From Ruditapes philippinarum (taxonomy: Eukaryota): 64,000 bases of DNA. The DNA lies in the NCBI RefSeq assembly GCF_026571515.1, contig NW_026860174.1:1-64000 (forward strand). Direction: 5' to 3'. Shown one piece after another: positions 23,279 through 63,006 of this stretch. Under the pieces are notes generated by a model. That model did not search any database, was not told where the DNA came from, and was given only the letters and a program-made list of their open reading frames with translations. How positions within the stretch are numbered: position 1 is the stretch's first letter; every line of letters starts with the position of its first letter. A program made the translations under genes and the position numbers.

Positions 23279-25835
23279 TTATTTCTTGTATTTTGAATCC
23301 AATCCTTTGACGCGATATTTATTCGGATCTCCTCCGTTCCGTCCATGTCTGTTTGCTTCTTGATCAGCGTCTCTATCAGCACTACTGTCACCCTTGAGGG
23401 CACCGTAAACTTCGCGAAGATCACTGAAAATATAAATAATTTGTCCGTAAAATACAAATATTTACTTGAATGAAATCTAAATTAAAGTGTGTGTGTTTGT
23501 TTCCCCAGCGAATCTTTGGCTTGCATCCTTTAGAGCTCTCTCTAATAAGTAATTACGTGACAAATGATGATGTGTTAATTTATACGTTACTTCCTCATTT
23601 TTTTCTCACACAATAATTGACTTTCTTTGCTTTAAGATATGGGAGCTTAAATCAACAAGACAGTTAAAACATATTTTATCTAAATGTAAATGTTTATTTT
23701 TAATACTAATTGGTATACTACATTACTACACGTGGTCCAATTGTAAATTGAAGATGAGTTAAAATATACATGTATATTGTTTTAATATAAAGCTTGTGAT
23801 GAACCTACCAAAATTCAATATTAAAAACAAAATTAAGAACCGTTTACATTAAAAAAGGAATATTTTTCTTTTTGACGCGCCTGTTAATAGTACACTATTT
23901 TGTTAAACTCAAATGACGCCAAGTTGTATGGAACACAAAATACTACTTTGTTTACATCTTATTACTATGATACTTTTTGTCAATTTATTTCATATTTATA
24001 GCTATAATATTCAGATAAATCCCAAAAACCATGGTTTAAAAATTATATAATTCACGATTGCCCTTTCTAAAGAAGTAAGATTTATTTGTTTCACAGATAA
24101 AATGTCTCACCATTCCAAACATGCCGCGCATCGGATCGCGTTCGTACCGCAAATACATGTATTACGATCGCACATTGTTAACCTATTTTAAGTTTTATAG
24201 AATACAAACTTGATACCTGATAACTCTTGCTGCATGTCGTCCGCCAGTTCCATGTTGTGCGGCATCATAATTTCCCCTTGAGTGAAAATACTTGTCAGCA
24301 CCTATCGTGTTTGCTTCTTTCATGTCTCTGCAATAAATAAAATCATAGATGTATTTAAAGGTCATATTCTGTCATATAGCATATATACCTTTCCCGTTTT
24401 CTGGGCCATTTGTTTGGCGTTTGGCTGTGTACCTACTTATTAGGCGTAGTTAGTTTTCTACATCCATCAGTCACATTCGTGTCACGCAGATGGTGGTAAT
24501 GCATCTAATTAAAATACTATTCTATCGAAATGTCGCTACATTCAGGCCATCTTCAACATAGCCTATAGGAAAATATATCTGTGAATCAATGGACCTTCGT
24601 GTCTGAGTTATTAAGGTCACTGATAACTTGCGCCGAGCCCCTGTGGGTTTGAACAGGGACTTTAGGTTCTATAATTTGAAGAAGCTATCCTGCAGTCTTA
24701 TTGAATCAGTGGTTCTACTCAGGTACCCGTTCGTGCCTGAAATAATGCACTGATGGTCTCCTTAGGTCTTCCTCCACATTAAATGCTAGAAAGGTGCAAT
24801 ATAATCTTTACAGTGTCGGTTAGACTTAAAATCCCACAAGCCTGTGACTCTGAAACCTTGCAAAAAAACATATAATGCCGAGCGAAAAACATAAAGTCGT
24901 ACAGCGCATACTTTTGCGTTGACTCTAACATTCGTGTACGGTTTTGACACAGTCATTTTCTCTCTCCGAAATCATATGTTTGAATTTTCAAATCCTGATA
25001 TATACATTTTTGAGCATTTTATTGAATGGCCCTTTGAAAATATGAGTGCCATTTTAAAGTCACTTTATGCCGCTAATATATAAACACATGTATTCTTTAC
25101 TCTCAGACCCTCATATTTATGGTTTTGAATAGCACCGAGAACTCGTAAAAATATATCTTCTTTTACCTGAAAAAATTACGCATAGAGAAATTGAGGTCTC
25201 TCTCCATCAGTAAAGATAATCACCAATCTACGTTTACATTGTCAATGACTGGAAAGCAGACAGTAAAACAAACTTAAACTATATGCTGCTTATAATTAGA
25301 AATAAACATAACGATAAAAAACAAATTTTCCAATAAAATACTAAAACAGGTTGTATAAATATAAGTAACTGTAAGAACAAACGAAATATTACTTGTATGC
25401 CTTGAGCATAGCTTTCGCTCCGTTGTTCAACCCAGAAACGTAATCGCTGGCCTTATATTTTACTTCCTTCGCCTTATCTTTTACTTTGGAGGCGTACTCG
25501 CTCGCTTTATTCTTTACCTCTTTCGCTTTATCCTTTGCAGTAGAAACATATTCTTTTGCCTTATTTTTCACCTCATGTGCCCTATCCTTTACTTTGGAGA
25601 CGTACTCGCTCGCCTTATTCTTTATCTCTCTCGCTTTATCCTTTGCCCCGGAAACGAAATTGTTCACTTTATTCTTTACCCCGGAACCGTTATTACTCCC
25701 ACTGTTCGTACTACTGCCTCTGCTGCTGCTGCTGCTGCTACGACGGCTTCCTCCCCACCAGGCTTCTGACTCCCCGATAACAACCAACAAAGCCACGAAG
25801 AGCAGCAACACGCTCGCTTTGCCGATTACCCTCAT
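23279..25835 (-). CDS. SAA: Serum amyloid A family protein, copy 1, with N-terminal 5 x 18-aa amphipathic repeat expansion (~232 aa)
   Basis: Exons (minus strand) 25835-25393, 24327-24217 (111 nt) and 23423-23279 (145 nt); GT-AG, both introns phase 2. Signal peptide [25 protein letters not shown]. Core [47 protein letters not shown]...[29 protein letters not shown] carries the SAA signatures DKYFHxRGN and ANxxGRxGxDPN. Confidence 0.95.
24600..24836 (+). mobile_element. Decayed tRNA-derived SINE in intron 1 of SAA copy 1
   Basis: The central domain GTGGTTCTACTCAGGTACCCGTTCGTGCCTGAAATAATGCAC...GGTCTTCCTCCAC is shared with the younger copy at 56201-56432. Confidence 0.7.
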
Positions 25836-27561
25836 TCTTATGAACGTTTTCTAATTTCTAGTGATCGTGTAAACGTCAAGAAATCAAAATGAACAGTGAC
25901 AGTTGATTTGCTTATATTGAGCTATATATTTGTTTGTGCGCGCACACGTGTAACTGGCGATAAGGAAAACAGTTTAAGAAGGCTTGAAATTACAATTAAG
26001 CATTTTCTATACATGTACGTCCAATCAAGTTTGTTATTCTTAATTTACTGACTTGTTGTGCAAGATATGTACTTTAAACTTCCTAATCCAGACAATGTTT
26101 CTTAAAATCTGATTTATCCTTATAGCACAAAATAAAACCAATAAAAACTGCACACGGAGATATACATTAACGTAGAAGAGAGCATTTACTGATAGAATCA
26201 CGGGAGCAGACACCGTTATTGCGCGTTTTTTTCAATATTCGTGACTCGGGGCGTCCTATTACTGAAATGACGAGACCTGGTTATTTCAATGTCTATTGAC
26301 ATAGCACTAGGAAGGGGAAAGCCTGACAAAATGCTTTATAATTAAAAACACCAGAAAACAAAAGGTATAATTAATGAATTGTTAGACATTTTACACACAA
26401 AGTTACTGGTACCTTTCTTTATTTCCCTTTTTTATAAGTTGTATACTGTATCAATGTGAAAAATGCAAAAGAACAAGTAACTATAGTACTTAACAATGCT
26501 ATGAAACAGATAACACTATGTCAGTAAACATTAAAATAGATGTTTCCAATGCACATTGTTTCGCTTACCTATTGAACTTTGGTAGATATATCCTCCAAAT
26601 TTTGATTTTGTTGATTTTGAGATATTTTCTGAAGTCTGTTAGATATAGAAAGTGAGACGTTCAAAAGTCTGAGAACAATTTAACATCTCCAGGTCTGCTC
26701 CAAACTGTATGCTCCTGTTTTAAATTTTGAAAACTCAGTAACAGGGTCCAGTACTGACTTTATTTAAAAGTGTAAGTTGTTGAAGCCATTTTATAACAGA
26801 CTGGTACTACATGCACATCTGATAAAAATATTTATTTTAGCTTATTGTAACATTTCATCTCCTTACTAAACTTGAAACCACGGCTAAAACCTTGCTGCAG
26901 TGCACGATTTTATAGCCTAGCATGGGTTTGTAAATTGTTTTTTTTTATTTTTTATTTTATTTCGTCTACGTCAACTAAAATTAATGTTAATTTCAAATTA
27001 TTCATAAATCATTAGTAATGAAGATTCCTCATGAAATAATTTTAAAATCAAAGCACACTTGATGAGTGTTACTTTAAATTTGACCGTGATGCTTCTTCCT
27101 TGTAGTCAAGTCGACCTCATCATATTGGTGGTCTTTAACGAGGAAGTTGATATGTTGAAAGCTTTCCATGCAATTGGCTACTTATGAGAATGATGCAAAT
27201 AGAGGTTGTAAAATGAAATGCTCTTTCATGTTTTAGATTTCATGTTTTAGATAAAACAAACCTAAAATAGAGAAAAACGAAAACCTTAAAGAATGTCCAA
27301 AGTAAGTAATGGGAACAAATTAAGTAATTTTTGTTTGATAAATATGATATTTTTCAATTCCATAGTTTAAATATAGGAGTCGTTTTGGCTTATGTATACC
27401 ATATATTTCACTTGTAAATGAACGTTGTACAACAGTATATTACAATTTATGTTTCATTAAAAAGCGTTTATTACAGAGTTGGCAAAATATGTCACTATCA
27501 AAACATACGAGTAAACATTGCATATTTCGTAAGTGGGTAGCAAAAACGCGTTTTGGATGTT

Positions 27562-30097
27562 TTATTTTTTGTACTTTTTGGGCAGTCCTTCCGGACGATA
27601 CTTATTCGGATCTCCACCGTTACGGCCATGCTTATTGGCATTTTGATCAGCTGCTATGTCCGCGGCACTATCACCCTTGATTAATCCATAAACTTCACGG
27701 AGGTCACTGAAAATTATACATTTATATTTTCTTGAAATTATACAATGTATAAACACTTACATGTGACATACTGATATGAAATAAGATTTTAATATTTCAT
27801 ACCATTAATAAACATATACAATGTAAATGTTTCTATCGGGAATATTGATAAATGTTTTAAATCTTGAATGCATATCTTTTGTCAAGCGGTCATGGATTTA
27901 ACGACTATCAAAAAACAACCAAATCTCTAAGCTTAAAATTGAACAAAACGTTTTCCCAAAAAGTGATCCGTTGAAGTAACTGGATCAAATGACCAAGTGT
28001 CTAACAGAGATAAATAGGCCCTTATTCATCCAGTCTTGACCATACACCAGTATTAATCTAAATTATATTTATAAATGACCTTAAAGTTCATACATTGTCA
28101 AATATGAAAAGCTAAAATACACGAAGATACGATTGTCTTTTAATGTTATTTCAATATCAAGCGAAGAAATAAATTGAACTGCAAATCTTATGTAACTGCA
28201 AATATTGCAAGAAGTGCTTATAGTTTATGTGGCTCGTGTATTTTTTTCTTCTTTTTTGTTTCAGCCAAATTGTTCTACATCTGGTACACCTCTAATAAAC
28301 CAGTTCGTTTAAATTACTTCCTTTTTTGTCTCACAATTATTGATGTTTATTGTGATAAGTATGGTAGTGAGGATATTAGTTGAAAATGCTTTTACCTATA
28401 GGACTTTTTAAATATTACTTTTATACTAAATCTTGTTCCCCTTTTTTTAAACATTATTTATGTATTTCTCAGACCCCTCGTCGAAAGAAAAGTGTTTCAT
28501 TTTAATCATATAATTATTATAGGTATTTATTGACTAAAATGCGAAATTTAATAATAAAAGTGGTACTTAATATTTTCAAAGTCTAATTGTATCAAAACTA
28601 CACGTCAAAAGTATTTTTACAAGATAAATCTATATACTTTTAAGAAAATTTAGGCGGACACTCAAGACAGCCTCCCATTTTGGTTAGTTTTAGGCATATT
28701 TTGAATAAGCCTCTATAAGTAGCAAAATTGTCAAACAAGCTTTTAAATGAGTGGGGTAGGATAAAATTCTTATACATATTTTAAACATACCTGATGACCT
28801 TTGCCGCATGTCGTCCGCCAGTTCCATGTTTAGCAGCATCTGCATTTCCCCTTGCGTGAAAGTACTTATCAGAATTTTTCCAGTTTGCTTCTTTCATGTC
28901 ACTGTAATACATAGAGTTATAGATGTATTTTTATTTGATAAAACATTCTTATTGTATCATAATTTTGTCTGATTCTGAACCGATTTATAGCTATGTCTCG
29001 ATAATTGTCACAAATTGTCATGCAGATGGCGTTGGCGGATGAAATTATTTCAACGCGTTGCCCCATGATGCCAAGTAGTCTACTTAAACGTACTGTATTA
29101 GCAAACATACCCGTATGATGCCAAGTGAAAACATTGAGATTTGAAATTTGTCTTTTGACGTTTTGTCTCGATATATGCAAGTAACATAAACTCTAATCCC
29201 CTTTCAAAATTCAAAAGATTTTATTTGGTTCCACCGCTTGTTTTCTCGTTTAGGGCAAACGCATTTTATTACATAACATTCTTTTACGCCACTCGTCATG
29301 GAATGGCATGAAAGTGTCACACTGAAAGTTCTAAAATAATCGCCGTATGAACAAATCTGCTGATGTTTCTAAATTAAAATTTTCCTCATTTTCATGTTTA
29401 TATGTTTAATACTGCTTAAGCCGGTGCTAGATGGCGTGGACGGTATCTTGCAATTACAACTGCCTTCCATGAACAGGCTTATTTAAACCGAGCCTGCAAC
29501 ATTTTCAAAGCAATATGCTCTTGCGTTTACAATTTAAACACTACACGTTTTGCCCACATATATCAGTTTGACATAAAACAATAAGTGACATTTAATTCAC
29601 TTTATACGAATTCAGGAACAAATGTATACCAGACCCTTATATTATCCGTTATATTAATTTGTTCGAATTCACTAAAGAGTAAAAGTGCTTTTGACTGCAG
29701 AAGTCTTCATTCGATTCCCTGTTGCATTGTAGATGTGACTGGTAAAAACGATCAAAAATATTTTACATAAAATCATTGTTAAGCTGCATTTTACTAGAAC
29801 AAAACATTATATTAAATCAAATTTTATTACATACTACACAACAGCTAGGACTATGAATGTAAGATAAGTTAATTTACATAGAATGAAATATTACTTGTAA
29901 GCCCTGTGCATTTCCTTCGCCCCATTTATTACACCAGAAGCATAATCTTTTGCTTCTTGCCATGTGCTCCTACTGTTTTGGCTGCTAATGTCACGACCGC
30001 CTTCTCCCCATGCGTCCAACTGTTCGGCAACAGCTGACAAAGTCACGAAAAGCAGCAATATAAGTGTCATCTCAATCACGCTCATTCTAATAAACAT
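27562..30097 (-). CDS. SAA: Serum amyloid A family protein, copy 2 (~152 aa)
   Basis: Exons 30097-29895, 28901-28791 and 27706-27562 give [24 protein letters not shown]...[108 protein letters not shown]. An alternative start is ATG 30085. Confidence 0.95.
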
Positions 30098-34525: not shown

Positions 34526-34596
34526 TAGGTAAAGCATACAGATAACAGATGTTTTTCAAGAAGCAGCAAAACACTTGGAATGTCAATTACTCTCAT
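34525..34596 (-). pseudogene. SAA: Ghost SAA gene: ATG and first 13 signal-peptide codons fused directly to SAA 3' UTR; the rest of the gene is deleted
   Basis: The minus strand reads ATG AGA GTA ATT GAC ATT CCA AGT GTT TTG CTG CTT CTT (MRVIDIPSVLLLL; copy 5 has [13 protein letters not shown]), then runs into sequence matching SAA 3' UTRs (plus strand TAGGTAAAGCATACAGATAACAGATG). 34600-35490 aligns by eye with the copy-5 upstream region 62960-63720, and 33240-33780 with SAA 3' flanks. Confidence 0.8.
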
Positions 34597-37312
34597 TCTT
34601 AAGATACAAAAATGACATATAACAATTAATTAGTTAGTTTTCGATGTTATAAGAGTAATCGATGACTAATGAAACACTTCAAAATGGTCGAAATGACAAT
34701 TTAGCATGTTTATTATGTCCAATCAAATATGTTTATTTTATCTTCCTGGCTTGTAGAACGCATTTGTGCATTTTGAATTTCCTGATAAACATAATATTGT
34801 TCGGAATCTCATTTGTCAGATTTATAATTACATAATATAACCAATAAAAAGAAGACTTATCGATATGTAAACAAAAGTGTGTGATTATCAGACGTCCGGC
34901 TATCCAAATCTGACCCGTATTGGCAAGATGCTTTTATAGATATTTGATTACTTTTTTCAAACACATATATCACAGTATAAGCGTTGACTCGTTTTTTTTC
35001 ACCATGCCTATAACAATTTTCTTATCAATTTTTATACATCAATTTCTATGTTCTTTTTCCAAGGTAAGTGAATAAGTTATTTGTCAAAGAATATAAAACT
35101 AAAAGTCTACACTCCAGATTGACACATTTGAAGTACTGATCATTTTAGACAAACCTTTTAAAAGACTACTGACTGAATAGCGAACAGTTCAGATAATGAT
35201 GAGACGATACGGATGTCTTTCTTGTTCTTGGTTTGCACTGGTCGAACGGTAGGGTATAATCTGTTACCACAAGCAATCTAAGAGTTTAACCCAAAAATGT
35301 TTTTATTCTTAAAACTCGAACGTTTTTATTTTTTGTTACTCCGTTACAGTTTCCGAAAAGGTATTCATTGCCCATGATTACAGCTGTATATATTCACCTT
35401 TTGTTTGCGGGTCAAAATTCAAGCAATATTATGTATTGTAGACAAAGTACGTTTTGCAACTTTGATGAGTAATTATTTCACCTTCAATGCTGCTATATTT
35501 GCGTTATAAGTCTCTAAACCTGCTCTTAATAAATTACACATTATAAAGCAAACATTTTCAATTTCTTCAGAGGAAAATTTGCATTTATTTCATAGACTAA
35601 AGGTGACTTTAAGATTTTAATTTAACCACGAAAAATCAATTTTAAAGTCATGTTTCTTTCTTCCTTTTTAAGTTTTAAGCTTTGACAACAGTCATTAAGA
35701 TGATTCAGAATCGTTAAATTGTTTTGTCACCAATAGGATTCATGACAGATAAAAGGACTTATCAAGTACCAAAAGTGGTTTGTAAAAACACATTTGAAAA
35801 ATACAACATAACACTTGTTTGCAATATGTTTTTTGTTTTTCCTTGGACTTTTGAGTAGATATCGCTCTACGGTATTCTCATGTTAAATACCCGACATTAA
35901 TTGGATGTTTTTTTCTTGCTTTTAATTTACTGAGTGAAAACGTTTTCGTAAATAAAAACGGCACTTTTATGTTTGTGATTATGACATATGTACAGGGTCA
36001 TCTGATGTCTTTTCATGTTTAATTTGTAATAAAATGTTCATATTTAAATTAGAGTACATTATGTCCATCACATAGGAGAAGATGTTCTGCCCATATTTTC
36101 TTATTTCCAAATTATTTTCCATTTTTGCTCTAAATAAAATTTTCTCTGCCTTTCAGTTGTATTGTTTCTACTGTTATTTTGTATCTTTTTTGTTGTTGCT
36201 TTTATCAACACAATTAATCAGCTGTTAATCTTAATTCATTATATTAGATAAATTCGTATCAATTAAGGTTCGCATTAACAATGCTGTAACTGGTTCAACT
36301 AAAATGAAACCGTGCTGCAATGTTTTATTTATATTTATTTTACGAACTCTAAGTTGAACATGCTTGTTTTTGTCGTCACGATTTAATGACCATATTTTTT
36401 CAAGGGTTATGATTTTTTTGTAGTGTCTGTCTCTCAGCTTAAGATCGTGAGTTTGAACCCTACTTGGGTCATGGCCATGTTTCCTGTGTTACACCAGTTC
36501 TTGTTAATTTAGGAAGCGGCCATGATAATGGTAAAATAAGCTACAGGATTTCTCCATAATATCCATAATCGACCATGAGGACGGTCGTTATGAAGATATG
36601 TGTACATTTTTATGATGACCGAAAATCGGCATTTTTTCAACAATTTCTTTTAATATTGTATATATATTTACATAAATATCAGGTTTATTTGTTTATAGCG
36701 GGTAACATTTTTGTTTTTACTTCTTATTTTTAAATTTAGTTTTAAATCAGTTGTATTCAAAAAAAAGTTTATGTTAGTATTTAATTATAAATTCAATGTG
36801 ATGACCCAGGCAGCGCGAATGAATTCAATCTAAGAGTTACACTTAAGGCTGTCTTTAGCATAAAATTCCTCAGGAAACAACTTTCACTTTAAATGATACT
36901 TTAAATTTCACCCTGGTGATTCTTTCTTGTAGTAAGGTCGACCTCATTTAATTGGTGTGTTTTTAATTGGTCAAGGAAATTAACTATGGTCAAGGAAGTT
37001 ATAATGTTGAAATCAAATGACATGTGTACAGTTATCTAAACTTTTATACCAAATAAGTAATGTATGTTCTGCAACGCAAATCATTATTTCATATACAGGA
37101 ATATTTTCGGCTTATGTTTACTATAAACTTCAGTTGCATATGAATTAAAGGATATATTACAGGTAACGTTTCATGAAAAACACTTTTATTCTAAGTAAAG
37201 CATACAAACAGATCAGATAATAGATGTATTACAGAGATTGCAAAATATTGCACATAGTCAAAATATACAAGTAAACAGTGCATACGATGTGAGTATGGTC
37301 TTTAAAGACGTT

Positions 37313-39930: not shown

Positions 39931-41859
39931 CTTTCAGCGATGATGTCGTCAAGAAACCAAAATGAACTATAATGATTAATTAGTTTTTTATCGTGACATA
40001 TTTATGGCAACAGTTTTACACATAACCATCACGTTAGTTATATTATTAACTACTTCGATTTCGTGTGGATATGGTAAAAACAGATATTGTTAATAAGATG
40101 AATTACAGATCTTCCTCTGATTTAATAGATTTTTTGTTATATAAATGACGTAATATATTCATGTATCGATTATGACCTTAATATAAATTCAATATTAAAC
40201 AATTTTTACTATTTTTTAAAGAACTCAATATAAAACTTTTCATAAAGTAATGTTTATTAAGCTTTACAAAATGCAATTTGCTATGAATGAGTTGAATATA
40301 GCTTAGGATTAGAAAGTTATTACCTTTAGGGCAAATGAAATAATAATAAGCAAAACATGTTAAAATGGTTGACATAGGAATAATAATTGTGTCGAATATT
40401 TGATAATTTAGGCTGTAAATGCATTACACAATGGCATCATTATAAACATAGAGATCTTTTAAATATAACAATGCAATTTGTTGGAATAATAATATGATTT
40501 GAAAGTTATTATCTGTTGCATACCAACCTGTAATGTTTCGATGGGTTACACCCCTCCTTAAATCACATAAATTCTTCATTTTTCTTACAAAATGTTATTT
40601 ACAAATTGTTCTCCAAACACAGTGCTTTCCAAAGTTATTTTATTTGATAAATGCTTTGTATCAAACAAATATAGTTAAGCTGTTGCAATCATGTTCAAAT
40701 TGTGAACTTGTTATGGTTTCCTTCCATCTATATCCTATATGATTTTAAAATTATTATTATTTATTATTATTCTGATAAATGCTTCAACTGTGCCTTTTTC
40801 GAATTGTAAAATTGTTATGGTTTCTATCAATATATATAATCTAAAAGATAATCTTTTTGATAAATGTTTTGTATCATACAAAAAATATAGTTTTACGGTT
40901 TTGATTATCATACAATTGTAAAATACTAAATGCCTGTACCTGTTTTCTCCTTCAAATGTTTTTCCCTGTCGGATTGAACGCTAAATCAGCTTTAACTATT
41001 TATATTTTGAAATGTCTTGCAGGTTTAATTGCCTTAGGGATATTGTATTGTTATGCGCAAAATTTGTATTGTCATTCAAATTACGTTTAAAAAGTTGTCA
41101 ACAGCCATAAAGTGGAAACTAAAAAAATGCATCCTGTTATTTTGCATCATTTTGACGTATGTACAGTGGCACAAAGGTGACGTGTGTGTGTTTTTATTTA
41201 TCTCGTGCGTACGATAAACAAATACGCGTAAACAAAGATCAAGTAAAGATATACGTGAATACAGGTCTATAAATATTTTAGGGTATTGTAGTTTACCTAT
41301 TTTCAAAGATTAATTACCATTAATAACAACAATTTAAAAAGCAATTACAAATTAAGCATATGAAAACCTAGGAAGATGTATGTTACTATAAGGGTATAGC
41401 AATATGATAACGGGACCATAAGTTATTAAATGACTCAGGTTTGAATAACTTGGTGTGAGAAGAGAAATTTTGTCTTAATACAAGACCCAACTTGCGTTTA
41501 AGGATTAAAGATTGAAAACAACAACCAGAATTTCTTCATATTTTATTTATTAATAATTAGTTACCCTATGACAAAAACACAATATCGATTAGACGCAACG
41601 TTAAACCATTCGAAACCATATCGATTAACATTGAATACATAGGAAATATCTGTGCGTGCGTGAGCGTTTATGTGTTTATATATATGTAAATAATTTCACA
41701 CATTTTATTGATACTTTGCTCTGATTTAGTAATATTGTTTGTATAGAGTTAAACAAAAATATTTTTGATCTATTTTAGAGATCAGTTGATGAGTGCTTTT
41801 CTTGTTATCTTTTGAACAACTTACATGCACAATGTTTAACCATAAAACCATTTAAAAAT

Positions 41860-48899: not shown

Positions 48900-51492
48900 T
48901 TATTTCTTGTACTTTTTTGGTAGTCCTATGGGGCGATATTTATTCGGATCTCCTCCGTTACGTCCATGCTCATTGGCTCTTTGATCAGCTGCTCTGTCAG
49001 CGGCGCTGTCACCCTTGAAAAATCCATAAGCTTCACGAGCATCACTGAAAAGTATGCATTTTTATTTTCGTGAAATTATATATATTCACATATTACATAT
49101 TGAAACGAAAATTTATGATTTCAAAAAAATTAATATCATGGCGACATATGTGTTTGTCGGAAATATTGATAAATGTTTTCAATCTTGAAATTGTTTCTCC
49201 TGACAAGTTTAAAGTGGGCATTACTTGAACGATTGTAAAAATAATTTATCTCTTTACATGAGTAAAAAAAATCCCGAAAAAATTGAGTCCGTTTCAACCT
49301 TTTGAGCAGCTGGACACATTCAACTGATCAATGCTCACACAGTGAAAAGGGTTCTTAATTATCCAATTTTGACATCGACCATGCACTAGTGTTAAGCCAA
49401 ATTTTATATATTAATGACCTAAAAGCTCATATATTGTCAAAAATGAAAAACTAAAATTGTAACTAGATACGATTGTCTTACATATATTAAGCGAAGCAAT
49501 AAATTGAACTGAAAATATTGCTTAAAGTTAAGGCGGCACAGCTTTTTTTCTTTGTTGCAGCGAAACAGGTTCGCATCCAGTAACCTCTAATAAACCAATT
49601 CGATTAATGTTTTTCACAATTATTGATGATCATTGAGATAAGATGATCCAAAAATGAAATAAGTATTGTAGTAAAGATCATCAATACAGTAAAACATGCT
49701 TTTATTTAGACGGTTATTTAAATACTACCCCTTTCGTCTTTAAACATTATTTAGGTATTTCTCACACCCGTCATGGACAGAAGGTGTTTCACTTTAATTA
49801 TATATTTATTATGGACTAAAAAATGACAAATATTGCAAATATGGTACTTGATATTTTCAAAGGCAGGCTTATGAAAAAAAATTTCACGGTCAAAGTAATT
49901 TTGACGAGATCAATCAATAAACTTTTAAGAAAATTTAAGCATTTGAAGACAGCCTCTCATTTTGGTAAATTTTAGGGATATTTTGATTTAGCCTCTTTAA
50001 GTAACAAAATGGTCAAACAACATTACCAATACTTTATTCGGAAAACATAAATGCCTTGTACGATTTTTATGATTTAAATGGTGACTTGCACGGAATCCAT
50101 GATTCAAAAGTTATCTTGCACGAAAATCATCTTTCGAAATGTGTATTGTACGAAATTCACTGTTCCAACTCAGTCGTGCATCGCTATAACATTATAATTA
50201 TGTACAGTGCACAATCAGTACGATCTTATTATAAGCTGTGTTTCTCAAGTTCGTATTACACAGATAATTGTAAAAGTGAGTGTATTTTAAAGGATACATT
50301 TATAAGTGTTATAAGATTCAAGAGTACCTGATGAACTTCGCCGCATGTCTCCCACCAGTTCCATGTGTAGCGGCATCAGCATTTCCCCTTGCGTGAAAGT
50401 ACTTATCAGATTTTTTCCAGTTTGCTTCTTTCATGTCACTGTAATACATAGAATCATAAAGGTATTTTTTATTTGATAACTAACTAAATCTATATTCATA
50501 CTTATTATATAAGATTTTGTCTTGTCTATAGCAGATAACTTCCCGTTCTCTGAACCGATTTATGGCTGTGCCTCGACCTACTGTAATACTTGATCTATTT
50601 GCGAAATTGGTGCGTTGTCACGAAGATGGCGTTGGCGGATATAATCATATCACCGAAATGCTCCATAATGCCATGCAATTGACTTAAACGTACCATTCTT
50701 TGGCAAACGTGCCTATGAATCTGTCCAAATGCAGATGTAATGTCAAGTAAAAATAGTGAAGTTAAAGCAATATGCTCATTAGTTCACAATTTACGAACAA
50801 TCTGATTAAAATCAGCTATAAAATAACACTACGTTTGTACGGTATATATGAAAAACATACAATCTGAACTTTAGTCTGATTGCAATAAAGCAGAGACAGA
50901 CAATGAACTCTTTAGATTGCTTAATTGGAATTTTCATGAAATGGTATTTTTTTGACTACAGTTCAGTTTCACAATAGCAATAAGTGACGTTGAATTCACG
51001 GACAAATGTATACTAGACCCTTTGTCTTCATATTAATTGGTTCTAATTCCACCAAAGAGTAATAATGTTCTTACAATGTCTGTCCCTATTGCAGTAGATG
51101 TGACTGGAAAAACGATCAAACAAAATTTACATAAATTCAATGCTAAACTGGATTAAACTAGAACAAAACATAATAAATAAGATTTCAGTATATACTACAT
51201 GTACACACAACTTAGACTGTATTAATGTAAGATAAGTAAAATTACTATAACTGAAATATTACTTGTAAGCCCTTTGCATTTTTCTCGCCCCATTTATTAC
51301 ACCAGAAACATAATCTTTTGCTCTTTGCCATGCTCTGCCGATGCTGCTGCTGCTGCTGCCGCCGCCGCCGCTGCTGCTGCTGCTTTCATCGTCTACTGCC
51401 AAAGCCGCCTCTAATTGCACTGCAGCAACCTTCAAAGTCACGAAAAGCAGCAATATAAAAGCCATGTCTGTCACCCTCGTTTTAATGAACAT
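48900..51492 (-). CDS. SAA: Serum amyloid A family protein, copy 4 (~161 aa)
   Basis: Exons 51492-51263, 50438-50328 and 49044-48900. Near-identical to copy 3, with linker [14 protein letters not shown] and C-terminus [12 protein letters not shown]. Frame and GT-AG sites are intact. Confidence 0.95.
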
Positions 51493-53379
51493 TTTTCAGC
51501 GATGATGTTGTCGTCAAGAAACCAAAATGAACTATAATGATTAATTAGTTTTTTATCGTGACATATTTATGGCAACAGTTTTACACATAACCATCAATTT
51601 AGTTATATTATTAACTACTTCGATTTCGAGTGAATATGGTAAAAACAGATATTGTTAATAAGATGAATTACAGATCTTCCTCTGATTAAATAGACAGACT
51701 TTTTGTTATATAAATGACGTAATATATTCATGTATCGATTATGACCTTAATATAAATTTAATATAAAACAATTTTTACTATTTTTAAAAAAACTCATTAT
51801 TAAACTTTTCATAAAGTAATGTTTATTAAGCTTTGCTATGAATGAGTTGAATATAGCTTAGGATTAGAAAGTATATTACCTTAAGGGCAACTGAAATAAT
51901 AATAAGCAAAACATGTTTAAATTGTTGACATAGGAATAATAATTGTGTCGAATATTTGATAATTTAGGCTGTAAATGCATTACACAATGGCATCATTATA
52001 AACATAGAGATCTCTTAAATATAACAATGCAATTTGTTGGAATAATTATATGATTTTAAAGTTATTATCTGTTGCACACCAACCTGTAATGTTTCGATGG
52101 GTTACACCCCTCCTTATCAAAGAGTTTGCCGTTTATTGTCTAAATCACATAAATTCTTCATTTTTCTTACAATATGTTATTTACAAATTGTTCTCCAAAC
52201 ACAGTGCTTTCCAAAGTTATTTTATTTGATAAATGCTTTGTATCAAACAAATATAGTTAAGCTGTTGCAATCATGTTCAAATTGTGAACTTGTTATGGTT
52301 TCCTTCCATCTATATCCTATATGATTGTAAAATTGTTATGGTTTCTATCAATATATATAATCTAAAAGATAATCTTTATGATAAATGTTTCGTATCATAC
52401 AAAAAATATAGTTTTACGGTTTTGATTATCATACAATTGTAAAATACTAAATGCCTGTACCTGTTTTTCCTTCAAATGTTTATTCCCTATCGGATTGAAC
52501 GCTAAATTAACTTTAACTATTTATATTTTGAAATGTCTTGCAGGTTTAATTGCCTTAGGGATATTGTATTGTACTGCACAAAATTTGTATTGTCATTCAA
52601 TTTACGTTTTAAAAGTTGTCAACAGCCATAAAGTGGAAAATAAAAAAAATGCATCCTGTTATTTTGCATCATTTTGACGTAGGTACAGTGGCACAAAGGT
52701 GACGTGTGTGTGTTTTTATTTATCTCGTGCGTACGATAAACAAATACACGTAAACAAATAACAAGTAAAGATATACGTGAATACAGGTCTATAAATATTT
52801 TAGGGTATTGTAGTTTACCTATTTTCAAAGATTAATTACCATTAATAACAACAATTTAAAAAGCAATTACAAATTAAGCATATGAAAACCTAGGTAGATG
52901 TATGTTACTATAGGGGTATAACGGGACCATAAGTTATTGAATGACTCAGGTTTGAATAACTTGGTGTGAGAAGAGAAATTTTGTCTTAATACAAGACCCA
53001 AATTGCGTTTAAGGATTAAAGATTGAAACAACAAACAGAATTTCTTCATATTTTGTTTTATTTATTAATAATTAGTTACCCTATGACAAAAACATAATAT
53101 CGATTAGACGCAACGTTAAACCATTCGAAACCATATCGAATAACATTGAAAACATAGGAAATATCTGTGCGTGCGTGAGCGTTTATATGTTTATATATAT
53201 ATGTAAATAATTTCACACATTTTATTGATACTTTGCTCTGATTTAGTAATATTGTTTGTATAGAGTTAAACAAAAATATTTTTGATCTATTTTAGAGATC
53301 AGTTGATGAGTGCTTTTCTTGTTATCTTTTGAACAACTTACATGCACAATGTTTAACCATAAAACCATATAAAAATTTA

Positions 53380-55030
53380 TAAATCTTGTCAAACTGGCGA
53401 GCAATAAGTGAAAATATGAGATTACTTTATGGTGTGATAAAGTATGCAGACAAGAATGATAAACCGGGGCTGTTATTCTTTGTTGAGTTTGGAAAAAGAA
53501 AATCGGTAACAAAAAATACTATTACGTATTTAAAACTTAAGATCTTTTTTAACTTTGGACAAACTAAATGACATGGCTTGAATTAATTAACAAAGACCCA
53601 CAAATTGCAAATTCTTCAATGGCCTTTTGTCTATTAAAAGAGGAGTACGACAAGGCTGTCAATTAACCGTACATTTTTATCTGAGAAATTGAATTTCTGT
53701 AAAAGCTATTAGACAAAACAAAATTATTAAAGGGTGTAGAATTGAAAATAGCCTCTTTGCTGACGATGCAACTTTACTATTAAATGGTATATTTGACCGC
53801 TTTGTAGCAACCATGTACATATTTGGACATTTTTCTATTTCCGCTCTTAAAACTTAATTACAAAAAATGTAGTTCTCAGAATAGACTCACTAAATAACTT
53901 ATATGATCTAATTTACTGTAGAAAAAAAATGTACATTCGAATGTTCAACAACATTATGCATAACATTCCATTCTAAATGTGATTTTATAATTAAATTGGA
54001 TTTTGAGAATAAATCAATCAATCTAAAGTAGATAAAAATAGATGCAGAGCAACAAATGGTAATTTTTTCGCCTTAAAGTTCTAAGTGATAAAATTATGAA
54101 AACAATTACACAACACTGTTTTGAATCTATTCGGCACTCAAAAAGGGACAAAGTTATTACTATACAAAACTTTGAATATGGATGATCGGATTGATTGGAT
54201 ATAAAATACTTGCCAATTTTTATTAACTCAATTAAATCGAGCTAGGTCAAAATGTTATTTGATAAAAAATAACCAGGGATTGTGAAATAAATAAAAACAG
54301 AGGATTTACAAAAAAATAGATGAAATCGATTTATTTTAAAGTAATCTAAACACAAATGAATATACAGAAATTGAAATTAAAAAATGACTACGGTCATGGA
54401 GTAAAAAAAATAATAAAAATTCACAAAATCTATTATACCAAATTATTTAGCAAAATTTACAATTAAAAATTATGAATCTTTATATATTTTTTTTCAAAAA
54501 TGGAAACTTAATGTAGAAATATCAATCACATTTAAGATTAAAGCTATTTTTTACACTAAAATAAAACAATTTAAAACTTTCGACCACCTGAAAAATTATT
54601 TTAACATTCCTTATACATAGATATTTAAATTTTACAAACTAACTTTATCAATACCCAAAGAATGAAAACATGAACTATAATACACTGACCAAACTTTAAC
54701 GCCTGTAGAAATAAGCACTTTTAGTATCACAGAAAAAAAGAAATCGTCTCGTCCAATGTCAGTAAAAAGCTAACACAGATTCAAGAGCAAATGAGACTGT
54801 GTAAAAGTACAAAGACAACATTGCAAATAAATGGGAAAAAATGAATTTCCCCAAACAGAATTTCAATGGCAAAGTATCTACGAAAACGTTTGCAACACTT
54901 CAAAGATAATATTTTACGAAAGTTTCAACTTAATTTTTACACAGGGACATTGCAAAAACACGTTTCTCCTTCAATGTAAATTTACCAAGTAAAGTCTTTG
55001 TGGTTGTTGCTGTATGGATATTGAAAGTAT
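53380..55030 (+). mobile_element. Duplicate of the decayed L1/Tx1-like LINE relic
   Basis: Same NWRAISEN, KRGVRQGC and LFADDAT fragments as 41860-43560; it was copied with the segmental duplication. Confidence 0.85.
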
Positions 55031-56200
55031 AAAACAAACTCCAGACATAAGTATTTTTAAAAGGAAGCAGTTAAACAGTTTAAAAATTGAAAGATTTGTT
55101 GATTACAGAATGATATATAAGAAAACTTTGAAAATTGCTGCATAAATTCTAATAGATTTTTTTCTAATTAAATTTGCATTATCTAAAATAATATCTGCAT
55201 ATAGAAAGCCTACTAAAGCAGATTAATTACCCTTTTTCCTGTGTATTTTATAATATATATTTGAGCTTCTTTACTTTATTTAATGTCTTTAATCATCTAC
55301 TTTGCCTATTTATAATCCACAACAGAAAGTTTTTACAAACATACAATGTTACATATTATCTACGTAAATGCTAAAGTTGATATATTTGTAAGTGGTTCCA
55401 AAAGATAAATTAAATAAATAAAACAGAAAAGTAATGATGAAAATATAAATTAAATATTCTCTGGTTGTACATGTATGTTTTTCATCTCTCTACGACCTCT
55501 TTATTTGCTGTACGCCTTAAGAAAATATTAAGAACTTTTTGAAGTTAAGAACTTACCAGCTGGAACAGAAAATGATTAGCCTTGGCCACCAGTAAAGGTC
55601 GACTAGGCTGTATACCGTTGAATTCACATTTTAAAGCTCCCAGAATTGATAATGGACAGTTTTATAAATAAAGGCTGGACAAGTCCATTTAAGAATTTTA
55701 GCATGTTTAGGGTTAAAACGTTTAAGTGCTGGTGACAATAATAACAGCCTTAGCCTACTGAATACTTCTCTATACTGGTGGTGTCTTCATTTTGGTATTT
55801 TCATATGGACGTCTCTGGATATTACAATAGACTAATGAATATTCAAAACGGGATAATCAATTACAAAAATAAAGCAATTTTAAGAGTTAAAGGTGTGAAC
55901 TCGAAGTTTATTTGAGGTTTTATTGACCAGAGTCAGAAATTATAAGTACTGAAATACACTCAAAGTCATTATATTATTATTTCAATTGACTATTTCTCAA
56001 ATTGACTATTGTGTCCTGATATTTTCCTTTTCCTCTTAATGAAATTTAGCCTGCCTTTCAGTTGTGTTGTTTTCTGTGGTTATTGTGGTCTTTCTTTCTT
56101 TCTTTCTTTTTCTTGCTCGTTTTATCAACACAATTAATTGGCCGTTTATTTTAGATAAATCATTTACTATTTAAGTACGTGTTACAATGCTTTTGCTGGT

Positions 56201-59478: not shown

Positions 59479-62400
59479 TTATTTCTTGTACTTTTTTGGC
59501 AGTCCTTTGGGGCGATATTTATTCGGATCTCCTCCGTTACGTCCATGCTCATTGGCTTTTTGATCAGCTGCTCTGTCCGCGGAGCTGTCACCCTTCAAAA
59601 ATCCGTAAGCTTCACGAGCATCACTGAAAATTATGAATTTTAATTTTCGTGAAAGTATATAAACATTCACATATCACATATTCATGCGACAAAATATGAT
59701 TTGAAAAAATTAATATCATAACCATTTACATATGTTTTTGTCGGAAATATTGATAAATGATTTCAATCGTTGCTTCTCCTGACAAGTTTAAAGTAGACAT
59801 TATATAAGTAAAACGATTGTAAAAACAACTTAATACCATAGCTTAAACATAATTTAAAAAAAAAATCCAAAAGGTCGAGTCATTTGAATTTTCACACTGA
59901 GAAAACACCATGATTTGAAAGTTAATTTATTGTTACAAATGAAAAGCTAAAATTGTATGATATATTATTGTCTTAATTTGGAGAAATAGAATAAACTGCA
60001 TACATTACGAAAAAATACTTATAGTTTAGATATCTTGTCTTCATAACCTCTGATCCCCTTTCAAAATTCCATTTTATTTAGTTCTCGTTTGGGGCACACG
60101 CATTTATTTTACTTTGGGACCATATGCCGCTTTTCATGGAATGGCACTTAGGTGTCACATTGAAGTTTCCATGATAACCGCCATATGAACACATCTGCAG
60201 ATGTTTCAAAATTCTAAATTGTGCCGGTTCAAGTTAAATGTTGAATTCTGCTTAAGAGGGGCTGTGGAGGTAGTTTGCACTTGACAGAACCGTCCATCGA
60301 CAGGCTCAATCGAACCGAGCCTGCATCATTTTCAATTTTGCCGTGCGCTTACTTTAGAGACTCTTATTTTCTCTAGTTTATCATTTTTTGCAACGAAACG
60401 TTGGTTCTCATCCAGTACAGGACTTTCTAATAAACCAATTCGATTAAATGGTGATCGAAGGAAAGGACTAAATTTGTAATTTTACTTCAATAACCGATGT
60501 CTATCCCTTTAAGACAATTATGTTAGAAATGATCAGCAATACAGTTAAACAGGTCTGTATCTAAACGTCTATTAAAAACTTTTGTACATACTATATTATA
60601 AAAAATTTACAAAGTTTTGATCCAAACACATACACTAGAAATTTATCATTCAAAATGTGTGGTGCACGAAATTACTGCTCAAAATATGTTGTTCATCATA
60701 TTAGCATATTGAGCAATGAGTACGATCTTATAGGGTCTTTTTTAAGTTCGTTTTATATAGATAAGAAGTAAGAATGTTTTAGAAGAATCATAAGTATAAA
60801 ATTTTATACCTGATGACCCTTGCTGCATGTCTCCCGCCAGTTCCATACTTAGCTGCATCTGCATTTCCCCTTGCGTGGAAGTATTTGTCCGAATTTTTCC
60901 AATTGGCTTCTCTCATATCACTGAAAAAAAGGTCAAAAATGCATTTAAAATTCAAAATGGGTCCAACACTCACCAGAGTGCCATACATACGGCTTTGACT
61001 GATGCAGTTTCCGCTGTTTTCTTTTTAACTTTATCAAATATGCATAGCACAATATTTTTCCACACATATAAACATTTTTAAAAATAACTCTAGCTATAAT
61101 CACCTGTTTTAAGTATAGTGTATATAGCTTTGTGAGGTCGTTAAACTGAAGAAAGATGATTCAGGCGCTGAATCCGGACATTAACAACAAGAAAATAATG
61201 TCTAAAGTCAAGCAAACTGACTTGTATCTTTATTTGTTTGGTCTTAGTCCTAAGCTGCAATGATAAGAAAAGGTAAATGAAAAGAAACGAAAAGCATACC
61301 TGATAAAGAAAGTCATTCATTTAAAATATATAAATTGTTTTACTATATCATTTTTTTGGCGTATTTCGTTAATTATCGGAACCGTTCAGTATTTCTGGGC
61401 ACTGTCTAGTATACATAAAGGTAACCACGTATGCCTAAAAACAGTACCCGGGACAACAATAACCCCAACAGCGTAATTATGTTACATGTAGTGACTTTAT
61501 CATAACCTATAGGTAAATGTATCTGTGACTCTGGCAAGTTGAGGGACACCAAAAAGTGCTAAACGACTGTAAAGTCGTCAGTCTTGCGTTCCCGAACAAA
61601 AAGTATGACGCATTCTCTCCGAAATCGTATGATATCTAGTTTTGACTTGTCAGACCCCGGTAAATTAACATATTTCACATTGCGACTGAATGTGTCATCA
61701 ACAATAAATAGTACAAATCTAAATTCACTTTATGCAAATGTAAGAACAAATGTATGATGACCTAGAGAAATCTAAAGTATTTCTTAAGTGAAACGTAAGT
61801 CTCCATTATCACCGTTTATATCTGTAACGTAGGAATGTAATAATAACGCAGGAATCGTACAAAATTAACGCCGAATTGGTGTAAATAGCGGTCGAAACGA
61901 GTTTACACGGTTAGTAAACGGACGAAACATTTTCATAATAAATCAAATAAAACAAAAGAATAAGCGCATATGGCTGCTATGACAAATATTTCCAGAAATA
62001 TGTTTTATTTTTAGAGATCGTTCGTGAGACATTTGCGATATACCTTGGTCATTTGCCAAACTACATATTGTACTATGTTCATATAATAGTAAAAAGTTGA
62101 TATTGTTTGTGAGATAACCAGCGTTGCTTTGGTTAAGCATTCATAAAATCGGCGTTACCTCGTAAAAATTGTCTAAGTCACACTAGTTGTTTGGTAATGT
62201 GTCAGGTATACCGAATTTCAAAACAATAATTTAATACTAGTATATGTGTAATTGTATTAACCTATATTGACAAAACACAAAACATCGCCTAAATACGATA
62301 ACCTGGTCGTCATTATCTTAAAAACCAAACACTTTCATTGAAATATTTTAATGAGATTAAAAATATGATGTCTTAACAACGGCTATCGTATGCGCTTTTT

Positions 62401-62925
62401 CAATTTTATTTACTTTGAAATATATTGGTTCATTTACTTACTGTGGTGCTCGTTTTGACCATGGGAATAACCATGGAATTGACCATGGGATTGCAAAATT
62501 CTGCGTTAATTCTGTACAATTCCTGCATTATTTTCACATGTATTCATTGCAGGATGTACCTGGTGATTATACACTTGCATAGTCTCTGGACTACTATGAA
62601 ACAAAATATATTTGAATTAAATTGTAAGCTGCATATTGCAATGACAAGATTTAAAAAATTAAATCTACACACCTCAGATCGTAACAGTGTTAGGTAAATA
62701 AATAAATGTACGAATGAAATATTACTTGTAAGCCTTGCGCATAGCTTTCGCTCCGTTCTTCACTCCTGAAACGTAATCTTTTGCTTTTTGCCATGTGCTC
62801 CTCCTGCTACTGCTGCTGCTGCTGCTGCTACGACTGCCTCCTCCCCACCATCCTTCTGACTCCTTGACAGCAACTAACAAAATCACAAGAAGCAGCAAAA
62901 CACTTTGAATGCCAATCACCCTCAT
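59479..62925 (-). CDS. SAA: Serum amyloid A family protein, copy 5 (~151 aa)
   Basis: Exons 62925-62726, 60920-60810 and 59623-59479 give [151 protein letters not shown]. The ORF-track start at 62964 is a TTG. Confidence 0.95.
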
Positions 62926-63006
62926 TCTACTCAACGTTGTATCCAGAGACGATATTGATGCCAAGATACAACAATGAACTATGGCAATTATTCAGTTAAT
63001 TTTCGG

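Follow-up and report, generated by a model that had tools for sequence, protein, structure and literature searches.

Does the tandem array of SAA genes in the clam Ruditapes philippinarum represent a lineage-specific expansion whose N-terminal parts diversified into a multi-isoform acute-phase/opsonin system, as a sequence-only reading had proposed, and what would its members do? We addressed this question in a 64,000-nt stretch of genomic DNA, here referred to as the window. The array itself is ordinary, in that it belongs to a known family and four of the five copies are in RefSeq, while the copy c1 is a modest new variant. We favour, with reasonable though far from full confidence, the reading that the cluster is a clam-lineage birth-and-death array formed by unequal crossing-over, that its products would be secreted SAAs that bind lipid upon infection or injury, and that c1 would be a specialised form.

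The window contains five co-oriented SAA genes on the minus strand (23279-62925), which we named c1 to c5 from low to high coordinate. All five have three coding exons: in c1, exon 1 (25393..25835), which encodes the leader, a Ser/Gly/Asn linker, a repeat helix and SAA helix 1, exon 2 (24217..24327) and exon 3 with the stop codon (23279..23423), the latter two supported by gene model and Pfam; 29895..30097, 28791..28901 and 27562..27706 in c2; 39698..39930, 38736..38846 and 37313..37457 in c3; 51263..51492, 50328..50438 and 48900..49044 in c4; and 62726..62925, 60810..60920 and 59479..59623 in c5. Every copy has an exon 2 of 111 nt and an exon 3 of 145 nt, all 10 introns are GT-AG, and the spliced frames are open and encode products of 232, 152, 162, 161 and 151 aa for c1 to c5. 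Based on Pfam, exons 2 and 3 separately pass the PF00277 cut-off in 10/10 cases (44.7-58.6 bits vs 30.8 bits), and the whole RefSeq proteins of c2-c5 score 126.5-132.9 bits. A profile of 60 SAAs matched exactly 15 open stretches in the window, i.e., five times three exons, but nothing in 20 windows with shuffled bases, arguing that the signal is not due to chance and that a sixth complete copy is absent; consistently, tblastn and the profile search revealed no sixth complete or opposite-strand SAA copy in the window. The leaders have a 9-residue hydrophobic core with a Kyte-Doolittle mean of 3.3-4.0, and other hydrophobic stretches are absent; based on hydropathy only, and with cleavage sites placed by eye, all five copies are predicted to have an N-terminal signal peptide. 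Together, the gene models and these leaders bear out the original description of five intact, co-oriented genes with equal internal exon sizes, open frames and signal peptides.

The same reading had suggested that the genes might be overlooked or fused by automated annotation. The c3, c4 and c5 products are identical over their full length to the RefSeq proteins XP_060606834.1, XP_060606835.1/836.1 and XP_060606837.1, and the c2 product agrees with XP_060606838.1 at 149/150 aligned residues, differing in the final residues where RefSeq ends the gene on a short alternative last coding exon near 27260 (approximately 27240..27261, minus strand). Annotation is therefore mostly not blind to the array: c2-c5 have separate models, and the suggestion possibly applies to c1, for which no record was among the matches returned by protein searches. 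Specifically, c1 was absent when its exon 1 was the query (two matches among 491 candidates of 80-258 aa) and among the best 120 of 263 matches to c5 (83-265 aa), its best identity among 280 database proteins compared was 78%, and the ESM Atlas gave no usable match to c1 exon 1 or the c1 helix. The search above 265 aa was insensitive (7/12 candidates, with c2 missed), and a longer or merged c1 model could escape it. The sole non-SAA match, a bacterial DUF883-type protein with 36% identity, was rejected as compositional. Two further R. philippinarum copies, XP_060606841.1 and 842.1, are located outside the window, on a contig for which the same length (120821) is listed.

Bivalve SAAs are less scattered than had been assumed, since named SAAs were retrieved from clams, oysters, a scallop, zebra mussel, crustaceans, echinoderms and amphioxus; bivalve SAA appears in the literature since 2014-2016 according to PMC8059625. 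Relatives compared here include SAAs of Mercenaria (XP_045187999.1), Dreissena (XP_052250023-25), Saccostrea (XP_062602231.1, XP_062610229/231.1) and Branchiostoma. Multiple copies per species are common among invertebrates, and PMC13093298 describes an expanded SAA-like family in Pinna nobilis. In a phylogeny with other mollusc SAAs, all five copies group with three further R. philippinarum proteins in a single clade (100/99) on a long stem (0.52), apart from the single Mercenaria sequence and the Dreissena sequences sampled, in support of the proposed lineage-specific expansion.

The clam copies resemble vertebrate acute-phase SAAs. The AlphaFold2 model of c5 (mean pLDDT 86.9) is an SAA four-helix bundle with a C-terminal tail, and in Foldseek it aligned to 4IP8, 4Q5G, 6PXZ and 6PY0 with TM scores (on target) of 0.92-0.95, human SAA1 and mouse SAA3 structures being the only matches (7/84) with E<=0.001. 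Identity to human SAA1 (4IP8) and mouse SAA3 (4Q5G/6PY0) is 55-58% over about 100 aligned residues. Because c5 alone was folded whole, the fold of c1-c4 is inferred from 74-98% exon identity. Vertebrate acute-phase SAA genes have four exons and three introns; each clam copy shows three coding exons, to which a non-coding first exon, visible only in transcripts, may add, and the last intron presumably falls at the vertebrate position. A leader peptide, an amphipathic helix 1 and clustered genes are in common, the clusters spanning 160 kb in human and 42 kb, with a pseudogene, in mouse as given in PMC6117975.

The clam copies differ from vertebrate SAA in having a Ser/Gly linker after the leader, as do the Mercenaria and Saccostrea SAAs, two extra C-terminal lysines, a more cationic character (net charge of the predicted mature proteins +6 to +21) and, in c1, the repeat helix. 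Helix 1 of c2-c5 has moments of 0.46-0.55 (shuffle p 0.0008-0.012); however, the apolar residues of the clam helix 1 are smaller than those in mammalian SAA and its mean hydrophobicity is below that of two of the three vertebrate controls, which may make for weak binding of lipid. A Gly-Pro-Gly-Gly motif between helices 2 and 3 is conserved in SAA, typical of the family and not required by the Pfam model. It is not kept in the clam, where Thr replaces Pro in 5/5 copies; Pro is present in 85/126 named relatives, indicating that the family tolerates change at this position. His replaces Trp in helices 3 and 4, and the usual helix 1 Trp is missing. The helix 3 position is the retinol-pocket Trp71 (mature Trp53), which is His in all five copies and Trp in 108/126 named relatives (4/126 did not parse there); His is found in eight of the 126, of which seven are from R. 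philippinarum and one from Dreissena. Five unnamed matches were left out of these counts. In the mouse SAA3 work of PMC6754605, this Trp matters most and W71S drops retinol affinity about 10-fold. Because of the His, retinol binding by the clam copies is predicted to be weaker than that of mouse SAA3.

The sequence-only reading had placed divergence mainly in exon 1, the coding length of which varies from 67 to 148 codons. Mean amino-acid identity is indeed lower in the leader (0.52) and helix 1 (0.73) than in exon 2 (0.85) and exon 3 (0.84); however, c3 and c4 complicate this picture because their exon 3 resembles c5 far more than the remainder of the gene does, arguing for a mosaic pattern rather than simply a diverging exon 1. 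In c3, 24/29 informative sites in exons 1-2 side with c2 and 19/23 in exon 3 with c5, and in c4 the counts are 24/29 and 20/23 (permutation p 0.0001). The flanks concur, being c2-like upstream and c5-like downstream, and both genes lie between c5 and c2; global intron alignment was uninformative for most copy pairs. Thus, c3 and c4 are mosaics that join a c2-like 5' part to a c5-like exon 3, and one unequal crossover followed by duplication would generate them at this location. In addition, a truncated sixth copy is present at 34557..34935 (minus strand), in which a c5-like upstream region (76%) leads into the initial 14 leader codons and no further exons follow.

Pooled dN/dS is below one in all alignable segments (leader 0.54, helix 1 0.24, exon 2 0.14, exon 3 0.22), with the leader aligned ungapped and the unalignable Ser/Gly linker left out, and the core of the copies is under purifying selection by this measure. 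Single pairs exceed one (c2-c5 leader, 1.53; c2-c3 and c2-c4 helix 1, 1.34 and 1.66) on 1 to 4.5 synonymous differences each, and the pooled leader and helix 1 values rule against positive selection on exon 1. Between c3 and c4, seven non-synonymous and two synonymous codon differences give no purifying signal. Most of the length change in exon 1 is located in the Ser/Gly run. Judging from these alignments, exon 1 variation reflects indels and relaxed constraint without detectable positive selection. The proposed N-terminal diversification is accordingly real as variation, but only the c1 repeats look built.

In c1, four 54-nt (18-residue) repeats at 25440..25655 (minus strand; helix start near 25679) are in register with SAA helix 1 and prolong it approximately fourfold to a 95-residue amphipathic helix. 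The helical moment is 0.39, which none of 5000 shuffles reached, and peaks at exactly 100 degrees; the last unit alone has a moment of 0.50 (shuffle p 0.0016). A single-sequence structure model has one helix of 98 residues (pTM 0.41), although AlphaFold2 tends to draw such repeats in this way. The units differ mostly at third codon positions (56/89 mismatches; pS 0.73, pN 0.17), a pattern by which the repeat helix is evidently under purifying selection. The repeats probably derive from the start of helix 1, which their unit ends match with 53-73% identity over 15-18 nt, a comparison made without a shuffle control. Among 121 sequences scored (10/131 did not parse), the c1 helix is the longest in register, with 104 residues by that measure, compared with 64 for the next and a median of 17. 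Saccostrea and amphioxus SAAs also have a helix 1 lengthened in register (41-64 residues), in one B. belcheri protein by 11-residue repeats; c1 stands apart by its 18-residue unit and its length. A search of 50% representatives gave 1163 matches, of which the best 150 were listed; of seven rows with a long N-terminus that were screened, three had no repeat helix by eye and four, with a mammal or mammal-like best match, were set aside.

Exchangeable apolipoproteins and perilipins are built from units of 11, 22 or 33 residues, and LEA and perilipin repeats are based on 11 residues. As in c1, apolipophorin-III, apoA-I and the perilipin 4 helix (described in PMC5889406) have a long repetitive amphipathic helix with small apolar residues and flanking lysines. 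In contrast, c1 has an 18-residue unit fused to an SAA core and scores below the Pfam cut-offs, both in full (ApoLp-III, 31.7 vs 36.3 bits; Apolipoprotein, 21.6 vs 90 bits) and as the helix alone (27.0 and 20.6 bits). The repeats are likewise below the LEA_1 cut-off (17.6-19.9 vs 25 bits), and no perilipin family model matched them in a Pfam-type scan. We suggest that the likeness is one of working rather than of membership and is likely convergent. The long helix may let this copy coat membranes or fat particles.

The alternative that survives best, and that we consider possible but doubtful, is that the copies are redundant and the array reflects neutral turnover or dosage only, with the N-terminal differences caused by Ser/Gly slippage and a tolerated repeat expansion, in which case there would be no multi-isoform system. 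The mosaic copies and the relic indicate ongoing turnover, diversifying selection was not seen, the c2-c5 cores are 81-98% identical per exon, and most of the exon 1 length change in these copies falls in a low-complexity run of low AlphaFold2 confidence. However, the c1 repeats hold frame, helical register and apolar face even though synonymous sites are near saturation, net charge is spread widely among the copies, and helix 1 is also lengthened in register in oyster and amphioxus SAAs.

Our best reading of function, by analogy with vertebrate SAA, is that the clam copies are secreted, cationic lipid-binding SAAs used in infection or injury. SAA binds lipid via helices 1-3 in the accounts of PMC10509712 and PMC6557629, although its original function is still termed enigmatic in the former. 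We propose that infection or injury would lead to secretion of the SAAs into haemolymph or mucus, where helices 1 and 3 would use their apolar face to bind and clear lipid such as membrane debris and bacterial lipids, with a likely bias to anionic surfaces due to the cationic charge; in c1, the lengthened helix 1 would act as an apolipoprotein-like surface helix with higher avidity for lipid surfaces. An R. philippinarum "serum amyloid a-3" probe, copy unspecified, was 19.53-fold up in haemocytes 72 h after Vibrio, as listed in PMC4234419. The rise was late rather than acute, and an acute-phase role, drawn from one published probe tied to no single copy, is plausible. For mussel gill, PMC7772429 lists an SAA transcript at -629.5-fold following bath infection; induction is thus not universal among bivalve SAAs. 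Within 1 kb upstream, none of the five copies has a strict NF-kB site, and one relaxed match occurs at c1; TATA-, C/EBP- and CRE-like words occur, but were scanned without a chance control and are not evidence.

Somewhat less probable than neutral turnover is that the SAAs act mainly on bacteria as cationic opsonins or membrane disruptors, the lysine-rich helix of c1 being the killing or binding part. Net charge reaches +21, the clam probe responded to Vibrio, PMC6117975 describes OmpA of E. coli as a ligand of human SAA1, which opsonises Gram-negative bacteria, and R. decussatus gill SAA is placed under "defense to bacterium" GO terms in PMC5712350. Against this, PMC7240019 traces several recombinant-SAA activities to bacterial contaminants. 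In the helical wheel, moreover, each c1 unit has a charge of just +2 to +3, acidic residues run along the centre of its polar face and its apolar face carries Ala/Val, which suggests a surface-coating rather than a lytic pattern. The lysines flank the apolar face and the polar face is acidic (helical wheel, moment and model), presumably the charge pattern of a class A helix.

It is unlikely that c3 and c4 represent allelic versions of a single locus that were assembled one after the other, which would reduce the true count in the window to four. The duplicated blocks that carry c3 (35448..44853) and c4 (47017..55933) differ at 467 of 8715 aligned bases (5.4%) and by 72 indels, near the species heterozygosity of 3.7-4% given in PMC9803972, and the coding sequences differ at 9/486 nt plus one codon. 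However, the window has no N gap, the 2164-nt spacer (44854-47017) matches neither flank beyond short repeats, the start-to-start distance of c3-c4 (11562) is close to that of c4-c5 (11433), the spacing of an array with similar units, divergence is 1.2% at the centre of the blocks and climbs to 9-13% towards their ends, and RefSeq keeps separate proteins, though merely following the assembly. Less likely still is a non-immune role of the cluster, and of c1 above all, in constitutive lipid transport or LEA-like membrane protection during air exposure of this intertidal clam: the weak ApoLp-III, Apolipoprotein and LEA_1 scores, the constitutive vertebrate SAA4 mentioned in PMC6117975 and the lack of strict NF-kB sites would fit, but any Lys/Ala-rich amphipathic helix scores in this way, as the YtxH and DUF883 models do with the c1 repeats, and the sole expression datum found for R. 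philippinarum SAA is infection-linked.

Returning to the lipid-binding birth-and-death array that we favour, we speculatively extend it, at a level of belief comparable to that for neutral turnover, to c1 being an expressed, seemingly unrecorded SAA turned exchangeable-apolipoprotein-like, with an SAA head and a 95-residue belt that would wrap lipid particles or bacterial membranes in haemolymph, to the oyster and amphioxus extensions being independent parallels, and to the His clade being a natural retinol-poor SAA. If so, invertebrates would have evolved apolipoprotein architecture from SAA repeatedly and independently, and the clam clade with His in place of Trp would isolate the lipid-scavenging function that has been proposed as ancestral. 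Because c3 and c4 differ at nine coding bases, clam aquaculture needs assays that tell the copies apart before it adopts "SAA" as a marker of infection. Altogether, the array is a natural series in which the fold is kept, the main retinol-pocket Trp is gone, charge varies severalfold and one form has a greatly lengthened helix 1, and the clam copies thereby allow a direct test of lipid scavenging versus retinol transport and opsonisation.

We found that the window holds five co-oriented, intact serum amyloid A (SAA; Pfam PF00277) genes on the minus strand, numbered c1 to c5 by increasing coordinate, so that c5 is transcribed first. Based on a motif scan and a splice-site search of the window, exons 1, 2 and 3 lie at 25835-25393, 24327-24217 and 23423-23279 in c1 (product 232 aa); 30097-29895, 28901-28791 and 27706-27562 in c2 (152 aa); 39930-39698, 38846-38736 and 37457-37313 in c3 (162 aa); 51492-51263, 50438-50328 and 49044-48900 in c4 (161 aa); and 62925-62726, 60920-60810 and 59623-59479 in c5 (151 aa). 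All copies share a 111-nt exon 2 and a 145-nt exon 3, all 10 introns are GT-AG, every reading frame is open, each leader has a hydrophobic core, and AATAAA follows each stop codon by 89-127 nt. Taken singly, exons 2 and 3 exceed the Pfam SAA cut-off in 10 of 10 cases; an SAA profile picked out 15 open stretches of the window, against none in 20 shuffled versions. Splice models, Pfam and the shuffled-window control thus uphold the five intact genes with 111/145-nt internal exons and leaders proposed in the sequence-only reading. Start codons have turned over: c1 and c5 start at a downstream ATG, c3 and c4 have ACG at that position and an ATG four codons upstream instead, and c2 carries both ATGs. 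A short conserved block 40-75 nt upstream of the ATG (e.g., 25880-25910 and 62965-62995) is present in all five copies and in a shortened sixth copy, the relic; it contains what we take to be initiator-like and AT-rich words and may be a core promoter.

In RefSeq, c3, c4 and c5 are identical to the R. philippinarum proteins XP_060606834.1, XP_060606835.1/836.1 and XP_060606837.1, respectively, and c2 and XP_060606838.1 agree at 149 of 150 aligned residues. The RefSeq model of c2 finishes on a short additional exon near 27260; in this 3' end (27569-27240, minus strand), a GT donor within the last codons leads to the short downstream exon and the conserved C-terminal Tyr is replaced, which may be genuine alternative splicing or an erroneous gene model. 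This GT donor is shared by c3 to c5 and absent from c1. A search with c1 exon 1 did not retrieve the c1 protein, which is also missing from the 120 matches listed for c5 and has at best 78% identity to any stored protein; a database model of c1 longer than 265 aa is possible, as the search at that size was insensitive. The concern that automated annotation could miss or merge copies therefore fails for the four copies with separate RefSeq models and may hold for c1. Because two further SAAs outside the window, XP_060606841.1 and 842.1, share the listed contig size (120821) and have neighbouring accessions, the cluster probably comprises at least seven genes; one more clam SAA (XP_060603361.1) is on a different contig.

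In a tree of 47 SAA core sequences, the eight clam sequences form one clade (support 100/99), nested with weaker support among Dreissena and Mercenaria sequences, and the oyster copies form a separate clade (96/93). This single clade supports the proposed lineage-specific expansion and, on the present sampling, places it later than the divergence from Mercenaria, with the caveats of a single Mercenaria sequence and a long stem. Divergence had also been described as concentrated in exon 1. Mean amino acid identity among c1 to c5 is indeed lowest in the leader (0.52) and the first SAA helix, helix 1 (0.73), compared with exon 2 (0.85) and exon 3 (0.84). Pooled dS is alike across segments (0.53-0.72), and dN/dS, from simple counting over ten non-independent pairs with the Ser/Gly linker between leader and helix 1 omitted, is 0.54, 0.24, 0.14 and 0.22, respectively. 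Because identity is lower and dN/dS higher at similar dS, we infer that exon 1 is under weaker constraint than the rest; pooled dN/dS outside the linker stays below 1 and gives no sign of positive selection in exon 1, so that the pattern is better described as relaxed constraint. The pair c3 and c4 differs by 7 non-synonymous and 2 synonymous codons plus a one-codon indel, too few for interpretation.

The c5 protein, modelled with AlphaFold2 on a 60-sequence alignment (mean pLDDT 86.9, low in the linker), matches the human SAA1 and mouse SAA3 crystals with TM 0.92-0.95 on target, and the sequence match to mouse SAA3 has an E value of 7e-32. Matches listed in a representative-protein search include many proteins of 200-2300 aa with a C-terminal SAA-like domain, presumably of the bacterial Rhs type. 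All five copies have an amphipathic helix 1, and the predicted mature net charge, with cleavage placed by eye, is +21, +6, +10, +9 and +16 in c1 to c5; a cruder cut gives +2 for rabbit, −1 for wood mouse, +6 for zebrafish SAA and +18 for one Saccostrea protein. Profile, fold, leader and helix 1 all place the copies in the SAA family, and two typical residues differ. In 5/5 copies, the loop between helices 2 and 3 has Thr instead of Pro, and helices 3 and 4 have His instead of Trp. The helix-3 Trp aligns by position with Trp71 of mouse SAA3, a residue whose substitution by Ser altered retinol binding the most (~10-fold; PMC6754605); among 126 named relatives, this position is Trp in 108 and His in 8 (7 clam, 1 Dreissena).

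Exon 1 of c1 contains four 54-nt repeats (25655-25440, minus strand), the 18-residue unit of which spans five turns of a helix. The hydrophobic moment, computed over 95 residues, has its peak at 100 degrees (0.39; 0/5000 shuffles as high), with Val/Ala/Ile and Tyr on one side, Lys along both edges and Asp/Glu opposite, and the apolar face continues in register into helix 1. A single-sequence model predicts one 98-residue helix (pLDDT mostly >90, pTM 0.41). Differences between units pile up at third codon positions (12/21/56 at first/second/third; pS 0.73, pN 0.17), arguing for past constraint on the repeats at the protein level. The ends of the units are similar to the DNA around the helix 1 start in c5 (53-73% over 15-18 nt, without a control), and the similarity suggests that the repeats arose by self-duplication of this segment. 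Repeat scores against the Pfam apolipoprotein, apolipophorin-III and LEA models were all under the cut-offs, and the ESM Atlas returned nothing usable for c1 exon 1 or the repeat helix. The boldest reading, c1 as an SAA-derived apolipoprotein, has a low probability. By an ad hoc measure of in-register helix length, scored for 121 of 131 sequences, c1 is longest (104), followed by Saccostrea (44-64) and amphioxus (41-44), with a median of 17. Based on these lengths, helix 1 lengthening is recurrent, with c1 the extreme within the sample; helix 1 was lengthened independently by 11-residue repeats in amphioxus (Branchiostoma belcheri) and as a non-repetitive helix in the oyster Saccostrea.

In vertebrate SAA, the concave apolar side formed by helices 1 and 3 binds lipid, and clearance of membrane debris has been proposed as a function (PMC10509712, PMC6557629). 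With gene structure, fold, amphipathicity, charge and constraint as the observed basis, we consider it reasonably probable that the clam SAAs are secreted, scavenge lipid in defence, favour anionic surfaces and bind retinol weakly, and that c1 would add a long surface-coating helix in the manner of perilipin 4 (PMC5889406). In haemocytes sampled 72 h after Vibrio alginolyticus, one Manila clam SAA probe, not assigned to a copy, was upregulated 19.53-fold (PMC4234419). In mussel gill, one SAA was downregulated 629.5-fold (PMC7772429), and in R. decussatus gill SAA is among the defence-annotated genes (PMC5712350). The rival explanations are not mutually exclusive. Neutral redundancy of the copies is possible at a lower level of likelihood. 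A direct opsonin or antibacterial role is unlikely. Human SAA1 is able to opsonise Gram-negative bacteria (PMC6117975), though some activities of recombinant SAA were traced to contaminants (PMC7240019). It is more improbable still that c3 and c4, the near-identical pair which we equate with copies 3 and 4 of the sequence-only reading, are haplotigs of one locus. Their duplicated blocks (35448-44853 and 47017-55933) differ at 467 of 8715 aligned bases, with 72 indels, and because this 5.4% is close to the species heterozygosity of 3.7-4% (PMC9803972), identity cannot settle the matter; however, the window has no N gap, the 2164-nt spacer between the blocks is unique, and gene spacings are equal (11.4-11.6 kb), all of which favour a true duplication. 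A non-immune role is the least likely.

The duplicates c3 and c4 are mosaics of a c2-like 5' part and a c5-like exon 3. In both, exons 1-2 are c2-like at 24/29 informative sites, while exon 3 is c5-like at 19/23 sites in c3 (Fisher p 4e-6) and 20/23 in c4 (Fisher p 7e-7; permutation p 0.0001 for the mosaic signal). At synonymous sites, both lie close to c5 in exon 3 (distance 0.11) and far from it in exon 2 and helix 1 (>1.1), and their flanks are c2-like upstream and c5-like downstream. Unequal crossing-over of c2 with c5 near intron 2 would leave exactly such a chimera between the two genes; the alternative is gene conversion affecting exon 3 together with its flank. The relic (34557-34935, minus strand) consists of a c5-like upstream region (268/351 bases) and 14 leader codons, and adjoins a 143-bp tandem repeat (33844-34271). 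A 70-190-nt element, either a small repeat or a regulatory element, recurs downstream of c2 to c5 (27021-27218, 36894-36966, 48449-48602 and 59178-59271) and at two gene-free sites (33266-33462 and 46793-46970). A dispersed element of ~280 nt is found in c2 intron 1 (29285-29508), c5 intron 2 (60042-60380) and the c3 block (43870-44155); it is absent from the c4 block and is therefore a usable marker to distinguish the two blocks.

Approximately 6 kb from c1 lies an intronless Toll-like receptor gene (14964-17366, plus strand) with an 800-codon frame and LRR_8 and TIR domains above cut-off; its linkage to the SAA cluster may be chance. Two probable exons at 6627-7289 and 8348-8734 (plus strand) encode a leucine-rich-repeat protein with a CaaX-like terminal motif, which we take to resemble LRRC58. 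Two arrays of a 14-23-nt unit (3007-3164 and 3750-3904), in opposite orientation and ~600 nt apart, are reminiscent of the termini of a foldback or miniature transposon. Tandem repeats occur at 3-1614 (period 186 nt), 10657-11301 (19-30-50 nt), 45896-46060 (27 nt) and 58124-58395 (69 nt), and several long entries on the ORF list consist of these repeats.

Rosani 2016 reportedly mentions a second SAA-like type. SAA genes lie in clusters in human and mouse (PMC6117975), a list of bivalve immune clusters that refers to Qu 2014 and Rosani 2016 includes SAA (PMC8059625), and Pinna nobilis has an expanded SAA-like family (PMC13093298). Our literature search, which did not reach the specialist Qu 2014 and Rosani 2016, turned up no study of this cluster or of SAAs with an extended N-terminus. 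Altogether, the clam array is a real, mostly annotated cluster of a known family, and its modest novelty lies in the mosaic origin of c3 and c4, in a clade with His in place of Trp, and in c1 with its long helix.
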